NCBI GenBank assembly: GCA_963767925.1
Contig: CAVYGB010000002.1
Coordinates: 1 to 64,000, forward strand
DNA from: an uncultured delta proteobacterium
GTDB lineage: Bacteria; Myxococcota_A; Polyangia; Fen-1088
Direction: 5' to 3'
DNA: 64,000 nucleotides
Translations under genes and position numbers: made by a program
In this document: one piece after another, positions 1 to 35,254 of the stretch
Layout of the letters: each line of letters opens with the position of its first letter
How positions within the stretch are numbered: the first letter of the stretch is position 1
Notes under the pieces: generated by a model
The model's database searches: none
What the model was told of the DNA's origin: nothing
The model's input: the letters and a program-made list of their open reading frames with translations, nothing else

Positions 1-1991
1 TTGGAGAGGGCGGTCGGCGCACCAACCTTCTTCGCGTGACGCGTGACCTGGTAGGGCGTCACGCTTTCCCATGTTCGCGATGTCGCGAAAAGAGGGTCGG
101 TTTCGAGGTCCGCAGGCGTGCTGGTCAGATTGAGCACACCGGCTGGGCCGGCCCGGAGCTCTCGAAACCCTTCCAATGCCTCATCCAGCTTGACTAGCTG
201 ATCGCGCTCGTGCCCAGTCGGTTCGCGGTGGAGGAGGTGGTGAGGGGCTACCACCAGCAGCCGTAGGCGCGGTGGATCGAACCAGAACGCGAGATGTCGA
301 TGGTCGGCAGCTGACGGTTGTCCGTCGGGTTGATGGCCGGTGAAGAAGGTTGCCAGGGCTGTTCGCTCTCCGAGGACGCGCTGGACGCGGGCCAGCACCG
401 CGCGTCGCAGGGCACGGCTCAGGATAGAAAATGGCGCGCCCCGGACGAGGCCCGCCGCGATGCCGAACACGTGAAGGCCCACGGCTATTCGTGCCGGCAC
501 CATCAATCCCAGTCCCCGGTCGCGCGCCCCGCCGAGCAGGAGTGGGCCGAGGACCGGCACGCCGAAGGAGACTTCGGCGTGCCACAGCCGCTCCTTCGTC
601 ACACCGCTATCCGGTGCGAAGGCGGCGGCCATTTCGCCGCGCCTTTGATACGGTTCGCGTTGAGCCCGGATGCTGGTCGGTGTCGCCAGAACGCCGGCTT
701 CGCGCAAGCTCCGGCTGATCGCATCCGCCGCGCGAGCGTGCTCATCTGCTGCCTCGGCTCCACCCTTGGCTTCGGCCTTCATGCGAGTGGGCTCGATCCG
801 GCGTCGAGCGGCCGACGCCGGGACCGCGATCGGCGTGACGGTTCGCCAGATCCGACTACGCGCACCACGCTCCGCACCTATGTGGAAAAGGATGCGGTTG
901 TCGCTTGTGGGTGTCAGCACGGCGTCGAAGACTTCCCCGGACGCCGGATCGATGGGTTGAAGGCCGGAGAAAGCCCACCGGACGTCCTCGCTCCGTAGCG
1001 GGCAGGCCGGCGGGATCTCGACCAGAACGCGGCGGATCTGATGGTCCGCGTGCTCATGACCGACCGAAGGCAGCGGTAGGACGCGTACGCGCGGTCCCGG
1101 ATGATCCGGGTGACCAAGGGTTTCGAGTGCGAGGGTTCGGTCGACCGATGACTCGCCTCCCGGGAGGCCGGCGCGAAGGCGAAGCGCCGCAGCGTAGCGG
1201 AGTGAAGCGGTCAGGCCTGCGGCCCCGGCGAGCGGCCACACGGCTGGTTGCTCCGGATCCGTCTCCCGGCGCAGGTCGTAGAGCGCCCGGAGAGACGGGC
1301 TGCCGTAGACCACCTGGGTGAACAAGGGTTTGGGTGGCTGCGAAAACACCTCGACAACCGCACTGCCAACCATCTCGGCACGAAATCGCTGCGTGCCGGC
1401 GCGGAAGCGAATCTCCAGGCTCTCCAGGGAGCCCGGTCCCGGGCAGGCAAGTGACGCCCCGCCATTTCCTCCCCCAGGAAGAAGCACCCGTCCCGCGTGG
1501 GCCTGGAGACGCGTCTCGAGTTCGTCGGGACCGAGGAGTCCACTTTCAGCCCACGCCATGTCCACCCCCCGTCCCAGCTGGTAGAGGCGCTCGGCCAGCT
1601 GACAGATTGTCGCCGGGTGATCGCCGGCGTCACCGTCGCCGTCGAAGGACCAAGCAAAGAGGAATGGAACTTCGGCATCGAAGAGCCACGGCTCGATCGC
1701 CTTCGCCCCGCGAATCTGCGAGATCCCATCGGGATCGGAGGCCACCGCGTCGCGGTCATTGTGGGGGACGAACAGGTTGTACCGCTGTCCCGGGACCATG
1801 TGCGGAAGGGCGAGCACCGGTGGCGCGAGGCCTTCGAGCCAGCGCAGCGCTTGCCGAGTCGCCTCGCCAAGCTTTGGCCCAGCGGCGGCAACGAGGGCCT
1901 GGAACAACCGGGCCGGCGAAGGACATGCCTCGTCGGCGCCGTGGAACCGGCCGTCGTGCAAGCGAACGGAGATCAGGAGCGTTCGGAGCAT
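1..1991 (-). CDS. csb2: Type I-G Csb2 (Cas5-Cas6 fusion), extended with a second Cas6-like domain; 3' end lies outside the window
   Basis: Not in the ORF track (no stop in window). Manual translation from ATG 1991: MLRTLLISVRLHDGRFHG..PSPARLFQALVAA..LYQLGRGVDMAWA..LPLPSVGHEHADHQIRRVLV..WRTVTP..GPLLLGGARDRGLGL..FFTGHQPDG..HRHL..WESVTPY. Open for >660 codons; directly downstream of csb1. Confidence 0.9.
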   Translation of the reverse strand, partial: MLRTLLISVRLHDGRFHGADEACPSPARLFQALVAAAGPKLGEATRQALRWLEGLAPPVLALPHMVPGQRYNLFVPHNDRDAVASDPDGISQIRGAKAIEPWLFDAEVPFLFAWSFDGDGDAGDHPATICQLAERLYQLGRGVDMAWAESGLLGPDELETRLQAHAGRVLLPGGGNGGASLACPGPGSLESLEIRFRAGTQRFRAEMVGSAVVEVFSQPPKPLFTQVVYGSPSLRALYDLRRETDPEQPAVWPLAGAAGLTASLRYAAALRLRAGLPGGESSVDRTLALETLGHPDHPGPRVRVLPLPSVGHEHADHQIRRVLVEIPPACPLRSEDVRWAFSGLQPIDPASGEVFDAVLTPTSDNRILFHIGAERGARSRIWRTVTPIAVPASAARRRIEPTRMKAEAKGGAEAADEHARAADAISRSLREAGVLATPTSIRAQREPYQRRGEMAAAFAPDSGVTKERLWHAEVSFGVPVLGPLLLGGARDRGLGLMVPARIAVGLHVFGIAAGLVRGAPFSILSRALRRAVLARVQRVLGERTALATFFTGHQPDGQPSAADHRHLAFWFDPPRLRLLVVAPHHLLHREPTGHERDQLVKLDEALEGFRELRAGPAGVLNLTSTPADLETDPLFATSRTWESVTPYQVTRHAKKVGAPTALS

Positions 1992-2019
1992 GCTCGGGGA
2001 GCTTTCGCCAGGCTGCCTG

Positions 2020-4048
<2,029 letters not shown>

Positions 4049-4052
<4 letters not shown>

Positions 4053-6770
4053 CGACGACCCTCCTCGCGGCCCCGTCGCTCATTCTCTCGAGAGGCCTGC
4101 TGATCGGCAGCCCGTAGCAGGGCCTCCCACCAGGCGAGTCCCCAGGGGCCCCACTGCTCCTGCAGCCGCGCGAATCGCAGCGCAACCTCCCGAACGCGCT
4201 CCTCGACCACGGAAGGCGGCTCGTCGCAGCCTTCGGCACGAATGATCGGACGCGCGAAGCCATGGTGGGCAGCGACGATGTGCAGGACCAGGTCCTGCTG
4301 CTCCGGAGACAGCGAGGCGACGAAGTGATCCCTTTTCACCCACGGGAGGGAGCCCAACTCGTGTCGGTACCCGTCCAGAAGCGCGACGTTGATCGGGGCA
4401 CTTGTCTTGGCGTAGACGCCATCGGCCGGCGCCCTGAACGCGCGTTGCCAGCGGGGCGCGCGCTTGCCCTCGTCGTGCAGCCGGCACGCCGCCGCCAGGA
4501 TTTCGTCGTAGGGAGTTGGCAGGGCAATCCGCGCGGCCAGCTCTCGGCCTTGGCGCTCCGTCCAGGCCTGGTGCTCGTCGAGCTTCTGAGGGGGCCCCGC
4601 TGAACGGTCTTCCTCGGTCGCGCCATCGTGACGCCACTTGTAGACGACGAGCCAGCGATTTGGCTCTCCATCTGAATCCTCGTCGATGGGTATGCGACAG
4701 CGCTCGTGCCATGAAGATCCAGGGTGACCGCCTTCTGCATCGGTGACCGGGACAACCTTGAACGGCACGGTGGGCCGGACGTCCGGAGAGGCGCCATCCG
4801 GGTCGATCCACGGCCCAGGCCCGTCGGCAGTTGGCGGCGCCGAATCCGTCTCTGCTTCCAGCATCCCTTGTGAGCTGAGGCCGCCGATTCGGGCATCGAC
4901 CACGAGGATGGCGCCGGAGAGTGGACGCTCGAGATCCTCCTCCACCCGTCTGGCAGATTCCTTCTCGGTCAATTGAGCCAGTCGCCAGACTCCTTTGAGA
5001 TCTCCCGCGGGACCGAGCGCGACCGCGACCACCGTCTGGGCGGCCACCACGTCGACGGGCTCAATCCCCTCGCTGCCCCCGTCCGGGCCTGGCCTGGCGA
5101 GTCGCGCCCCCCAGGCCCGGGCGCGCGCGAGCAGCCACTCCGAAGCGCGGTAGGTCTCGGTTTCGAGGACCTCGCTCAGGTGAGGCGGAGCAGCCTCGAA
5201 GAAGCGACTGATGTCCCGCGCGGAGATATCCTGTTTCCGCCCGAATGGCAGATGGGTCCGCCAGACCATGGAGGTCTGCGGTTCGTCGTCGGCCACCCAT
5301 CCGCGGAGCCATGGGTCGATCTTCGGCCTTCCAGGATCCTGATCGAGCGAAGTCAGCGACCAGGCGTCCACGACGGCTCGCGTGAGCGCCGGGTGAAGGG
5401 GAGCTGGCGTCGTGGCCAGCTCGAGAGTTTCGCGTAATTTGTCGTCGTGAGCCGCTCGTCCCCGCAGGGTGCGGAGGGTCCCGGGACTGACATCGATTCC
5501 GGTGGGACCTTGTGGCAGTTCCGCCATCGGCAACTGTTCGAAGGGCCGGCGCAGTGTAGCCTGCTGCTCGACGTTCGCCGGGTCGCTCAGCACGACGACC
5601 TGGGCCGCCCCGTCGCCCCGTCGGTTCACACGACCGAGTCGCTGGACCATACGCTCCCAGGCAACCAGGTCCGAAACCATGTGGTCCGCGTCGAGATCGA
5701 TCCCAACCTCTCCGGCCGCGGTGGCGAACAGGAACGTCGCCGTTTGACGGGCTGCTCCGGTCCCTGCCATGAACCCGAGGCTTGCCAATCGCTCGGCCGC
5801 CTGCTGCCGCTCGCGGACGCGGCGCCCGCCCACCAGCAACTCGACCTGGACCGGTGAGGACGCGATCTTTTCGAGGTGACGAAGGGCGTTCTCGGCGACG
5901 TCCCGACTGTGGGAAAAGACGATGCACCGGACAGAGCGAGTTCCCTCGCCCGACAGCGACCAGGCTTCGGAAGCGAGAATCGCTCGCCAACTCTGACCCG
6001 GCCACATCCCGGAACCTCAGGACCTTCTTGGCCGCAAGTCGCTTTCGCACAATCCGGTGGTCGAGGTCCGCGGGGCCGAGCCCCAGCACACCGCTGCCAC
6101 GAGTCCGTCCCGTCGCGGACAAAGAAAGAAGGCTAAAATTCGGGATGAGCTCCGCGTCAGCTGCGCGCGCGCCGAAGATGGAGTTTCCGTCCGCAATCGA
6201 TTCCAGGAGCGCTTCGAAGGGAGGCACGAGATGCGCCTCATCGAGGACCGCCAGCGTGTCGGCGCCCAGCAGCCCGCTCTGGTAGGGTCGCAGCTTCCGA
6301 CTGGTTCCATACCCTTGAAAGAGGAGACGTGAGCCGATCATGTCGACGGTGCCGACGATGATCGCGGGCGAGGCCGGGTCCTCGAGCCACTCCCGATTGT
6401 CGATGTGCTGTCCCCTGAGCGTGGAGATCGGGAGACCGGCCTCGAGGCCAAGTGCAGATTGGACAGACGAGTCCGCGCCAACCCATTCGCGGAGGCCCAG
6501 CGCAACGTTCGTGGCCTGGTCTACAACAGCCCGCCGGTCGACAACATAGACGAGCCGCCGCGGAACCGGCGCCCCGCACGCTCGGGCGACAAGCCAGATC
6601 GCCATCACAGCCGTCTTGCCGAGGCCAGTCGGGATATCGAGAGCCCGATCAATGACTCCGGTTCTGAATCGTCGGAGCAGCTCTTGCTGCCATGGAAAGG
6701 GCTCATCGTCGGCACCGAGGCTCAGCGCCCGCCGCAGCCAGGCGTCCGCCTGATTAGAACTTGCTCCCAT
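4049..6770 (-). pseudogene. cas3: Type I-G Cas3 (SF2 helicase with C-terminal HD nuclease), split by one frameshift near 5984 (real lesion or sequencing error)
   Basis: ORF 5061-6770 holds PFPWQ, PTGLGKT, DEAH and SAT. ORF 4049-6007 holds EVGIDLD, QRLGRVNR, HDEGK, RHE, HHG and AAD. The frames join at GAG TTG GCG [A] GCG ATT CTC. Confidence 0.9.
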
Positions 6771-6871
6771 GGGTCACGCCCCGCCCGGAACCAATCGGCG
6801 GGCGACGATGAGTTCCACAGCGATACGGCGCAAATTTTTCGCGCTTGTCACACAGCCCGCACAAGGCGACG

Positions 6872-6968
6872 GCGGTATGGGGAGGCCCTGGGTGCGGGGG
6901 GCGGATACAAAACTCGACGAGAAACAGCACCCGACCTGATCAGGCTTCAATGGGGCCGCCGCCCGCAC
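6872..6968 (-). CRISPR. Degenerate single-spacer mini-array (crRNA-like regulatory RNA candidate)
   Basis: Minus strand reads GTGCGGGCGGCGGCCCCATTGAAGC (6968-6944; I-G-type repeat 3' end), a 35-nt spacer CTGATCAGGTCGGGTGCTGTTTCTCGTCGAGTTTT (6943-6909), then GTATCCGCCCCCCGCACCCAGGGCCTCCCCATACCGC (6908-6872; degenerate repeat). Confidence 0.8.
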
Positions 6969-7100
6969 TCAGCGCCTTCCCACTCGGGTAGCGCAAGGGC
7001 GAAACCCTATCGGCCTTCTCCTTCCTCCGACCACCCTTTTCGGACGTCGAGCCTTCCTCCAAGCTGACTCAACCGTCTTTAAAAGACGGAAACTGAATCG

Positions 7101-7142
7101 AGTCAACTTACTGATAATGTCAGGTCTAAAAATCACAGTCAG
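7101..7142 (-). promoter_or_regulatory. Putative sigma70-like promoter of the mini-array/cas operon, overlapping the partial protospacer
   Basis: AT-rich stretch. Minus strand CTGACT(7142-7137)-17 nt-CATTAT(7119-7114); alternative -35 TTGACT at 7106-7101. Confidence 0.45.
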
Positions 7143-8144
7143 AAGGGTAGGTGTTCCTCGGAGTTTAGGCAAGTAGTCAGAGCAAACAACACTGTGCGTC
7201 TTGTCCTTCCAGGCCCAGGAGAAGCCCCACCACGCCCAAGCCGCGAACTGCGCCCGGGGACGGGCGGCCGGGCGGGTTTCACCTCACCAACCTCCATGCT
7301 GCGCCTGCCGGTCGCGGTCCTCGTGTGGGCGCTGGTCCGGGGGGGAGGCGGCCGGAGCGGCGGGCGGGCGGGTGGTATGGGCGGCGCTGGCGGCCGCGTT
7401 GCGCTAGCACCGCGGCTGACCTACCGATTCCTCGAAACCATCGGAGCATCGTGTTCATGCCCTTCCCTGAACATCCGGGCGCCGTGAGGTCTACATGTTC
7501 GTCTCCGAATCAGCGCGTCGAGGCGGGCGTCTCGTACGTGCCGCTGGGGCTTCCGAAAGCGGCTGGACGGCTTCAGCTCCTGGGGGTCGAAGGGCGTGTC
7601 CTTATCGAGCTAAGGATCGAGCCGCTTGATGTCTGGCGGGGCTTCGGTAAAGCGCGGCAGCGGCTGCGTCCGAGCCGGGGCGGCCTTCGGCGCGACCGCC
7701 GGGTACTGGACGACGGGCTCCTGGTCGGGCTCCGCGGGGCTGGGAGCTCTCTCCGGTCTCCCAGCAAACAGCCAGAGGCGCCGACGACCGCCGCTGCCAG
7801 CGTCAGGCCAACGCCGACCTTGACGACTGAAAGCGGCTGCCGGAGCGGCTGTCCATCACTTGCTGTTTGTCGACGATCTGGTTCCCAGCTCCAGGCCGCG
7901 ATTGTCTTCAAGACCGGGACCGAACCGGTGGCAGGGAGGGCGATGTCTCACGAAGAGACCGGGCAATCTCCCAGCCCGGGGCTGCGAGCGAGAACGATGT
8001 CCTCCGCAACGGCCGGCGCGCTCGCGGTCCACCGGATCGACGCGCACGGCTGCCCGTTGCCTCGCCAGAGGCCCCTCACCCGGCGCGCAGACGCGCCGAC
8101 CTCTCCCCCCGGCCGACCCGCGGGGAAAGGGAGGGCGCGGGCGG

Positions 8145-9079
8145 TTAGATCGGCAGGAAGATGAGGGTGCCTTTGCCGGTGTCGGGGATGACGAGGCGCT
8201 TGTTGGGGAGGTCGAGGTACTGGTCGGCGGTGGAGCCGAAGCCGCGGCCGTCGAGGATCACCTTCTCGTTCTTGCCGGCGCGGTCGAGCTTCCAGACCTT
8301 GCCCTGCGAGAAGCTGGTCACGTAGATGTTGCCCTGGTCGTCCTGATCGATGCCGTCGGCGCCGCGGTAGCCGGTGGCCAGCGTCTTCAGGGTGGTGCCG
8401 GTCTGCTCGATGATGTTGCCGTAGAAGAACTCGGCGATCAGCAGGCGGCCGGCGGCGGGGGCGGCGACGCCGTTGATGAGGAGCAGGTCGGGCGACTTGT
8501 CGACGGCGATGGAGATCTGGCCGGCGGGCACGGTGATGCGGTAGACGCGCGCCTCGGGGAGATCTGGGAGGCCTCGCTGCTGGTGGTGGGCCACAGCGAG
8601 TTGGTGCTGGGGTTGAAGGCCTTGCCGATCTGGCCCATCTCGGTCACGAACACGGCCTGGTTTCCCGGCTCGGGGGCGGCGTCGTTGAGGAAGCCGACCG
8701 GGCTGGGGAAGGTCTCGGCCAGGACCGACTTGTTGCCGGAGCTGTCGACCTTCCAGACCTTCGTCACGTCGGTCACGATCAGGTGGTCGGCCACGAAGGC
8801 GATCCCCTTGGGCTCCTTCATGCCGCCGACGAAGGTGGACACCTTGGTGCCGTCGACGACCTTCACCTCGCCGTCGTCCGCCATGCCCTCGCCGTTCTGC
8901 ACCGACACGTAGAGCAGGCCGCCGAAGCCCTTGGTGACGCTCTCGGGGCGCGGACCGACGGTGAGCTCGCTCATCTGTCCAGCCGGTGGGCCGGCCGGCT
9001 CCTTCGATTCCGAGCAGCCGAATGGCCCCGCGAGCAGGACCGCGAGGCTGGATGAAACGAGGATACGCGGTGTCTTCAT
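8145..9079 (-). pseudogene. SMP-30/gluconolactonase-like beta-propeller lipoprotein, frameshifted near 8560
   Basis: RBS GGAGG + ATG 9079, lipoprotein-like signal (GPFGC), RPES and FLNDAA in one frame; ARVYRI, GADGID and TADQYLD in another. Confidence 0.75.
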
Positions 9080-9340
9080 GGCTTCCCTCCGCTGAAAAAA
9101 CGACGGGCCAACGAACCTCGAACGGCAGGGGCCCGCCAGACACCTTCCGCTGGGCGAACCGAAGATGCCGGTTTCGCACCGCGGACTTAACCGCTTCCCG
9201 CCGACCGCCGCAAGCGCGACCGACCGCGGCTCGAGGCGGCGTGGTTTCACCGATCTTTTACAGCCCCGCCCTCGCGACGCGTTTGCCCCTGCCGTTACAG
9301 GGGCAAACCCGAGCCTGGGATAACGACGGCCGCGTTCTCG

Positions 9341-34357: not shown

Positions 34358-34430
34358 CAAACAGGTGGCGGTGAGAAGGAGGGCTGAGCCGTTGGGGCGG
34401 CGTGCGCGCTGCCCCTGTCACCGATGTCCC

Positions 34431-34493
34431 GTCCACTCTCCTGTCACCCAGTCCTGTCCACTCTCCAGTCACCCAGTCCTGTCCACTCTCCAG
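34431..34493. repeat. 25-bp tandem repeat x2.5
   Basis: gtccactctcc(t/a)gtcacccagtcct at 34431 and 34456, partial at 34481. Confidence 0.9.
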
Positions 34494-35254
34494 AACCTTC
34501 ACCCTTCACCCTTCTCCCTTCTCCCTTCACCCTTCACCCTTCACCCTTCACCCTTCCCTTCACCCTTCTCCCTTCACCCTTCTCCCTTCTCCCTTCTCCC
34601 TTCTCCCTTCTCCCTTCTCCCTTCTCCCTTCTCCCTTCTCCCCTTCTCCCTTCTCCCCTTCTCCCTTCTCCCTTCTCCCTTCTCCCTTCTCCCTTCTCCC
34701 TTCTCCCCTTCTCCCCTTCTCCCCTTCTCCCCTTCTCCCTTCCCTTCTCCCCTTCTCCCCTTCTCCCTTCTCCCTTCTCCCTTCTCCCTTCTCCCTTCTC
34801 CCTTCTCCCTTCTCCCTTCTCCCTTCTCCCTTCTCCCTTCTCCCTTCTCCCTTCTCCCTTCTCCCTTCTCCCTTCTCCCTTCTCCCTTCTCCCCTTCCCC
34901 CTTCCCCCTTCTCCCTTCTCCCTTCTCCCTTCTCCCTTCTCCCTTCTCCCTCATCTCCCCTTCTCCCCTTCTCCCCTTCTCCCCTTCACCCTTCTCCCTT
35001 TCACCCTTTCACCCTTTCACCCTTCACCCTTCTCCCCTTCACCCTTCTCCCTTCACCCTTCACCCTTCACCCTTCACCCTTCACCCTTCACCCTTCACCC
35101 TTCACCCTTCACCCCTTCACCCTTCACCCCTTCACCCCTTCACCCCTTCACCCCTTCACCCCTTCACCCCTTCACCCTTCACCCCTTCACCCCTCACCCC
35201 TTCACCCTTCACCCCTTCACCCTTCACCCTTCACCCTTCACCCTTCTCTTCCCT
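34494..35254. repeat. Long heptamer/octamer array (CCCTTCT / CCCTTCA / CCCCTTCW)
   Basis: 761 nt with no G on the plus strand; 34577-34952 is purely C/T. Confidence 0.97.

Follow-up and report, generated by a model that had tools for sequence, protein, structure and literature searches.

A putative CreR-type guide upstream of cas3 in a type I-G CRISPR-Cas locus

Type I-G, for which I-U is the old name, is the least studied of the type I CRISPR-Cas systems. A literature search found no experiment on its regulation. The closest described systems are regulatory guides encoded by degenerate mini-CRISPRs in other subtypes. CreR has been tested in I-B, I-E, and V-A (Liu et al., bioRxiv 10.1101/2023.03.10.532045), and the same preprint reports creA-like elements found by hand in I-D, I-C, I-E, I-F, and I-U loci (its Figure S7). 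In the survey of Shmakov et al. (PMC10120712), an I-F1 mini-array was validated with a reporter, and Cas3 proved dispensable for its effect. Table 1 of that paper assigns a mini-array to 4% of 235 I-G loci, with no analysis of I-G. The detailed analyses concern I-E, I-F1, I-D, I-B, and V-A. The 2026 version of the phage crlRNA preprint, searched by word, mentions neither I-G nor I-U.

The I-G effector itself is described in Thioalkalivibrio sulfidiphilus, where Csb2 cuts 4 nt 3' of the repeat stem and leaves an 8-nt 5' handle (PMC9638904). According to the same source, the PAM is TTN, and along the backbone every five paired bases are followed by a kinked one. Cas3 is reported to be a stable part of this effector and to be necessary for stable R-loops. 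The locus described below carries a degenerate repeat-spacer-repeat upstream of cas3 whose spacer partly matches the presumed promoter region, and it was compared with these systems and with other type I-G loci.

The type I-G locus and its mini-array

The window, meaning the whole stretch of 64,000 nucleotides that was analyzed, covers the initial 64 kb of contig C2 in a genome of 9.34 Mb (71% GC, 13 contigs). A type I-G cas operon occupies its minus strand in the order cas3g, cas8g2, cas7, csb2. The first gene of the operon, cas3g (4049..6770; TIGR02621), extends over two reading frames with a switch near 5978-5990. It is followed by cas8g2 (3126..4052; TIGR04106, E 4e-69) and cas7, or csb1 (2020..3129; PF09617), whose product is ~65% identical to many Csb1 proteins. 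The last gene, csb2 (3..1991; TIGR02165, profile positions 1-491 of 492), encodes a Cas5-Cas6 fusion, the crRNA endonuclease. Its reading frame is still open at the end of contig C2, and the remainder of the system, cas4-cas1 and the array, is found at the start of contig C3. A Cas1 domain (C3:2700-3548) lies there inside a 611-aa frame of Cas4-Cas1 size, and a cas2-sized frame is present on the same contig. The CRISPR array (C3:4239-9790) comprises 75 repeats, 74 of them identical (CTCTCCGCCGTCCCCGGACGGCGGCCCCATTGAAGC), and 74 spacers of 35-42 nt. The canonical repeat ends in ATTGAAGC and folds at -15.3 kcal/mol. Judged by the presence of Cas3g, Cas8g2, Csb1, Csb2, and Cas4-Cas1, together with this repeat ending, the system is of type I-G, and its cas set is complete and accompanied by a 75-repeat array.

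The reading-frame switch in cas3g was located against four intact homologues. The similarity follows frame -2 down to ~5985-6006 and frame -3 from ~6001-5977, and the query positions are continuous across the switch, which indicates a single frameshift (window positions 5960-6010, minus strand). This frameshift may be real decay or an assembly indel. The latter is plausible because the gene at 8145-9250 switches codon phase as well. That region is strongly coding, with third-position GC up to 1.0, and its codon phase changes near 8500-8600. It contains two overlapping minus-strand ORFs with weak ScyD/ScyE-family matches, a second apparent frameshift that hints at assembly indel errors.

The base composition of the cas operon (window positions 1-6770) is 66% GC against 72% for the window, with a weak third-position GC signal, and a cas3 match was absent from the same-genus genome searched. 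The cas locus was probably acquired horizontally. Some 104 tandem CCTTCTC heptamers occupy window positions 34496-35248 and are preceded by a 25-nt repeat (34414-34491). Contig C3 additionally holds two non-CRISPR tandem arrays, with ~100-nt units in 4 copies (C3:27666-27975) and ~64-nt units in 12 copies (C3:39439-40149), both with GGGGCGAGGGCGAAC-like sequence and its inverse at their borders.

Upstream of cas3, at a distance of 174 nt, the minus strand carries a pseudo-repeat, then a pseudo-spacer, and then a second pseudo-repeat that is weak. The first pseudo-repeat, psiR1 (6944..6979), matches the last 22 nt of the array repeat with its own 3' 22 nt (6965..6944) at 21 of 22 positions. Its local alignment score is 40, against a maximum of 29 among 300 shuffles. 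What remains of the repeat includes its 3' stem half (GGGCGGCGG), the linker CCCC, and the handle of 8 nt, ATTGAAGC (6951..6944); the 5' stem half is missing. The 12-mer CCCCATTGAAGC is found in 74 copies in the array and in one copy elsewhere in the 9.34 Mb, which is the mini-array site. Comparison of the leader of the true array with the DNA upstream of psiR1 gave a score of 21, below the 95th percentile of shuffles.

The pseudo-spacer, psiS (6909..6943, minus strand), starts with CTGATCAGGTCGGGT and is 35 nt long. This length lies within the range of the array spacers, two of which (2/74) are also 35 nt, and a search of phage records with psiS found no match. The second pseudo-repeat, psiR2 (6872..6908, minus strand), is degenerate. 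It keeps TCCGCC and CCCCAT, has lost its own hairpin, and scores 24, the 95th percentile of shuffles, a marginal likeness to the repeat. Its register is right, as it begins exactly 35 nt past the handle. The 3' stem half of psiR1 has its pairing partner in the 5' stem half of psiR2, CCGCCCCCC (6904..6896). A further repeat-like piece on the same strand (6849..6879) contains CCGCCGTC at 6875..6868, which equals the canonical 5' stem half, and forms a hairpin of -13.4 kcal/mol. Its alignment score of 18 is the shuffle median and is not significant alone. From its sequence, this piece may be what is left of a third repeat, or it may serve as an alternative hairpin on the 3' side. The whole unit is a degenerate repeat-spacer-repeat derived from the cognate repeat and located beside the cas locus, with psiR2 as its marginal part. 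It lacks two intact repeats carrying the family hairpin and does not qualify as an ordinary CRISPR array.

A PAM-flanked self-target in the presumed promoter region

The 5' end of psiS matches a site on the plus strand upstream of the mini-array. The self-target CTGATAATGTCAGGT (7111..7125) agrees with the 15-nt seed at 12 positions and differs at positions 6, 8, and 12. On the non-target strand, the protospacer is directly preceded by a PAM-like TTA (7108..7110). Beyond the seed, psiS positions 16-35 match the target at 0 of 20. Complementarity to this nearby, TTN-flanked site is confined to the PAM-proximal side of the pseudo-spacer, and such seed-side pairing would presumably prevent cleavage. 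The self-target is 168-182 nt upstream of the pseudo-spacer, and a full-length Cascade footprint would span 7108 to about 7145.

Chance was estimated in several ways. Sites with a TTN flank and at most three mismatches in 15 number 15 genome-wide on both strands, the self-target included. In the 554-nt intergenic region, ~0.0008 such matches would be expected by chance, and of 986 control 15-mers taken from the same 1 kb, three find a partner of this kind. The first-pass annotation had proposed a mini-CRISPR before a type I-G operon, with a spacer aligned to a TTA-flanked site ~170 nt upstream. The alignment and its coordinates hold, and the distance agrees with the measured one. The repeat origin is confirmed by the likeness of psiR1 to the repeat of the genome's own array, the operon type by the Cas3g, Cas8g2, Cas7/Csb1, and Csb2 found, and the match itself stands well above chance. 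A shared protein operator was also considered for the palindromes of the two sites (CTGATCAG in the seed, CTGA..TCAG in the target). It was rejected, as the spacing of the arms differs, and an operator also leaves the PAM and the 6/12 mismatch pattern described below unexplained.

The self-target falls in an AT-rich island of 126 nt (7075..7200), the presumed promoter region, whose GC content is 43% where the window has 72%. Two candidate promoters on the minus strand point toward the mini-array and cas3. Candidate P2 (7114..7142) combines CTGACT (7142..7137), a 17-nt spacing, and CATTAT (7119..7114) at 8/12 consensus positions, and it lies wholly within the predicted Cascade footprint (7108-7145). 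Candidate P1 (7078..7106) pairs TTGACT (7106..7101) with TTTAAA (7083..7078) over 17 nt, and the PAM is 1 nt from its -35 hexamer. The -10 hexamer TTTAAA of P1 is contained in the near-palindrome CCGTCTTTTAAAGACGG (7089..7073), which could be a protein operator. Both candidates are weak consensus matches, and a promoter scan at ≥9/12 returned none at this locus. In the related loci of the survey reported below, the targets adjoin or overlap -35-like TTGAC motifs, some with a promoter-like hexamer pair. TTGACA stands directly past the seed in L070 and TTGACG beside the PAM in L090. The target in L077 overlaps an 11/12 promoter, and in L080 a 9/12 promoter lies directly past the target. Because of the hexamer pairs, the motifs of the relatives, and the lack of a conserved gene rightward, we infer that the island is the promoter of a transcript carrying the mini-array and then cas3.

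Rightward of the self-target, positions 7130-8050 gave no family match and a weak codon-position GC signal, and they had no counterpart in 25 relatives. The only likeness in those genomes was a dispersed repeat. A dispersed repeat of ~75-85 nt is located at 8056-8140, with at least 16 more copies at 88-93% identity on six contigs and shorter matches in one same-genus and one same-family genome. The character of 7130-8050 bears on the idea that the guide controls a non-cas transcript, for example, a plus-strand RNA starting from GATAAT (7113-7118) and running rightward. GATAAT is a 5/6 -10 box overlapping the seed, and regulation of cargo has been described by Shmakov et al. (PMC10120712). Small genes are also found between the self-target and cas3 in two surveyed loci, at L074:1404-1799 (aspartyl-protease-like, 131 aa) and L029:4633-4902 (DUF3892), and these may be cargo under guide control. 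However, a -35 box is absent at 16-18 nt on the plus strand, and the DNA to the right is neither recognizably coding nor conserved. Control of a non-cas transcript is improbable at this locus.

On the other side of the island, psiR1 is separated from the candidate promoters by 90-125 nt of purine-rich DNA. This segment carries two Shine-Dalgarno-like GGAGGAAGG copies on the minus strand (7060..7052 and 7028..7020), 32 nt apart. The second copy is followed by the run AGG AGA AGG CCG ATA, whose codons are expected to be infrequent at 72% GC. CreT toxicity is exerted through a rare-codon mechanism. These features would suit a CreTA-type addiction module. The guide would then repress a creT toxin promoter, loss of Cascade would kill the cell, and cas autoregulation would be secondary or absent. 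Known CreT is a toxic RNA repressed by the antitoxin RNA CreA and Cascade (PMC9458426). Against such a module, ATG, GTG, or TTG is absent at a usable distance behind both Shine-Dalgarno-like copies, and the equivalent segments in L025 and L070 share no feature with this one. Moreover, cas3 comes directly after the mini-array, and terminators do not exceed chance in the promoter/terminator scan (one terminator-like site, inside the spacer, against 0.8 expected). An addiction module at this site is unlikely, and autorepression of the cas3-led operon is the reading pursued here.

Mini-array and self-target pairs in other type I-G loci

For the survey, 23 Cas7 proteins were aligned, and of the 432 I-G loci confirmed in species-representative genomes, the 80 best were taken. 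The repeats of the surveyed loci end in ..GGCCTCATTGAAGC. At least 150 nt upstream of cas3 were available in 65 of the 80 loci, which together with the locus described here (G000) make 66. The span from -1200 to +100 around cas3 was searched for a handle-like 8-mer with at most two mismatches. The 15 nt after this handle had to find a TTN-flanked match with at most three mismatches. Twelve loci passed. In one of these, L089, the pair is an artefact of a true array whose repeat is palindromic, and its removal leaves 11/66, or 10/65 besides G000. The 11 loci are G000, L025, L029, L031, L042, L070, L074, L077, L080, L090, and L091. In L025, which is Lamprocystis purpurea DSM 4197, the seed matches its target at 15/15, and the mismatch pattern of L029 is identical to that of G000 (6, 8, 12). 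Nine hand-picked candidates had been examined first, six of which (6/9) had partners against control rates of 0.1-0.8%.

The survey was repeated without the PAM filter, with L089 and L069 left out as loci that hold true arrays. Among handles with at most one mismatch, 10 of 12 partners carry TT, against a background of 4.2%. In the noisy class of 2-mismatch handles, one row of 49 has TT. This row is L077, with mismatches exactly at 6 and 12. The remaining two partners behind handles with at most one mismatch, in L024 and L076, have non-TT flanks and look like GC-rich chance matches.

The 11 pairs share a characteristic geometry. Positions 6 and 12 account for 16 of their 25 mismatches (binomial P ~6e-9), a pile-up that fits the every-sixth-base kink of the I-G structure. 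The recurrent mismatch at position 8 (G000, L029, L091) is, by estimate, not significant allowing for 13 positions. Target and seed are separated by 49-186 nt in all 11 loci. Pairing mostly stops at positions 15-17, and distal matches are kept in L031 (13/20) and L090 (10/20). The target lies on the same strand as the mini-array in five loci and on the opposite strand in six. As the orientation is mixed, an RNA hairpin between target and seed is not the common explanation. In the sampled clade, these natural self-targets lend sequence-level support to the TTN PAM and to unpaired positions 6 and 12. Array finders overlook such elements in ~1/6 of the loci of this clade.

Seed and target also vary together. 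The seed sequence is different in each of the 11 loci, so that 10 of the 65 other loci combine a distinct seed with a matching target. In the related loci L080 and L090, the seeds diverge at positions 2, 7, and 11, and at two of these, 2 and 11, the targets show the corresponding change. The spacer/target covariation that the first-pass annotation had named as a check on a functional guide is thus observed among these loci, at two positions in the case of L080 and L090.

The cas3 loci of 13 class-level relatives hold no mini-array pair and contain one chance-like row with a 2-mismatch handle. Those of 29 phylum-level relatives gave 33 handle-like sites and two TT-flanked partners, both rejected. 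In the rejected candidates L097 (mismatches 1, 6, 12) and L113 (mismatches 3, 4), the handle comes after the cas3 start and is 1-2 kb away from its partner. Both carry seed mismatches, and the handle of L113 lies in a stretch repeated at other cas3 loci. Since no pair occurs in the 13 and 29 relatives, the G000 copy lacks a close homologue with which it could covary. A metagenome scan for handle plus seed, with positions 6, 8, and 12 free, returned one match, on an unrelated AT-rich contig. The mini-array DNA of L031 is likewise absent from 40 relatives of its genome. Within the survey itself, L021, L061, and L062 carry a solitary or partial handle and no partner within -1200..+100 of cas3.

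The recurrence of these pairs is informative on whether the unit could be an inert fossil, that is, a decayed array end upstream of cas3 with a chance likeness to an AT-rich site. A barely recognizable psiR2 followed by a third repeat scrap would agree with decay, as would the frameshifted appearance of cas3. Nevertheless, the match has a chance expectation of ~0.001, and the PAM-flanked seed design and its 6/12 signature recur in 10/65 other loci. The 0 matches past position 15 are in addition the pattern of a non-cleaving guide. A fossil is very improbable.

Proposed autorepression, folding, and relation to known regulators

Considering its sequence, psiR1-psiS-psiR2 is likely to encode a CreR-type guide through which Cascade represses its own operon, the one led by cas3. 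Transcription would start from the AT-rich island (~7075-7145, minus strand) and proceed through 6979..6872 into cas3-cas8g2-cas7-csb2. Csb2 would cut 4 nt past the stem and leave the 8-nt handle AUUGAAGC, and a guide bearing this handle would load into the type I-G Cascade. The guide would pair via ~15 PAM-proximal bases, ~12 of them effective, with positions 6 and 12 flipped out. Its TTA-flanked site (7108-7125) would overlap or adjoin the promoter. The short match would permit binding without Cas3 cutting, and the bound Cascade would block RNA polymerase. Hence, cas expression would drop while the effector builds up. A guide for negative feedback had already been suggested in the first-pass annotation, and the crRNA-like geometry and the PAM-flanked, seed-only self-target speak for this suggestion.

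Several observations count against the CreR-type reading. Neither pseudo-repeat folds into the hairpin bound by Csb2, which makes normal Csb2 processing doubtful. The mismatch at position 8 lies inside the seed. The cas3 frame is interrupted near 5978-5990, and Cas3 is reported to be necessary for stable I-G R-loops. In addition, the promoter call depends on hexamers matching at 8/12, psiR2 is marginal, and a close homologue is lacking.

The predicted fold of the unit differs from that of an ordinary repeat. In the minimum-energy structure, the 3' stem half of psiR1 pairs with the 5' stem half of psiR2, and the duplex extends outward and encloses the handle and the spacer. The G000 fold has 24 psiR1:psiR2 pairs and 0 local pairs. 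One canonical T-A pair has become C-G across psiR1 and psiR2 through a double change, and ~14 more pairs lie beyond the repeat-derived stem. The flank duplex has an energy of -22.0 kcal/mol, against -15.0 ± 3.2 for shuffled sequences, with 2.95% of 2000 shuffles as good. The whole unit reaches -55.2 kcal/mol, against -45.1 ± 3.8, with 1.2% of 500 shuffles as good. A search of Rfam returned no family and only sub-threshold microRNA-like matches, which are due to the long hairpin.

The same arrangement is found independently in L031 (Kofleriaceae), where a perfect 21-bp inverted repeat flanks the mini-array (L031:5815-5915). Inside the duplex lie CCCA, ATTGAAGC, and a 36-nt spacer, and stem and handle are again 4 nt apart. 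The duplex is unrelated to the repeat stem of its genome (GTCTCCGTCGACGATCATCGACGGCCCCATTGAAGC). The other nine units retain a local hairpin in at least one pseudo-repeat. It is conceivable, though rather unlikely, that some I-G regulatory guides use a split hairpin, built from the 3' half of psiR1 and the 5' half of psiR2, in place of per-repeat hairpins. In the modeled structure, the split hairpin would restore a substrate for Csb2 that spans the guide and keeps the stem 4 nt from the handle. As the two cases, G000 and L031, are too few, a split-hairpin class is not claimed. If the split hairpin is real, the mature regulator would be a two-piece RNA, and its processing would depend on the fold of the whole unit. 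Such a regulator could also differ from ordinary crRNAs in how it competes for Csb2.

The CreR mechanism itself is already known, and the type I-G copy would be an addition to the known regulators. If the CreR-type reading is correct, RNA-guided autorepression reaches type I-G and controls a cas3-led operon. This scenario raises the question of how a Cas3-containing complex occupies its own promoter without cutting.

Compared with the CreR of Liu et al. (10.1101/2023.03.10.532045), the unit shares a degenerate mini-CRISPR in the cas locus, limited PAM-proximal complementarity to a site at the cas promoter, here a presumed one, and autorepression without cleavage as the proposed outcome. Differences lie in the subtype, I-G, and in the regulated operon, which begins with cas3. 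Furthermore, the guide here is placed in a presumed 5' leader, and its pseudo-repeats lack hairpins of their own.

The mini-arrays of Shmakov et al. (PMC10120712) are likewise standalone repeat-spacer-repeat units. They have a seed target in a promoter region, which is a presumed one in G000, next to the cognate PAM, and every sixth position is mismatched. The I-E and I-F1 representatives sit between the cas3 and cas8 genes and are directed at the Cascade operon rather than at cas3. Seed-target pairs were found in 11/66 I-G loci of the clade sampled here, against 4% of 235 in that survey.

The Haloarcula I-B CreTA system (PMC9458426) resembles the proposed workings of the present unit in its ectopic degenerate repeat pair, its crRNA-like RNA, and the repression of a neighboring promoter by Cascade. 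Unlike CreTA, no toxin candidate was identified here; the segment in question shows only Shine-Dalgarno-like purine runs and rare codons. As with the crRNA of T. sulfidiphilus (PMC9638904), 4 nt separate the stem from an 8-nt handle, here CCCC and then ATTGAAGC, the PAM is TTN, and the pairing suits a kink after every five paired bases. The Csb2 of that organism binds a hairpin formed within one repeat, whereas here the sole stable stem joins psiR1 and psiR2 around the guide.
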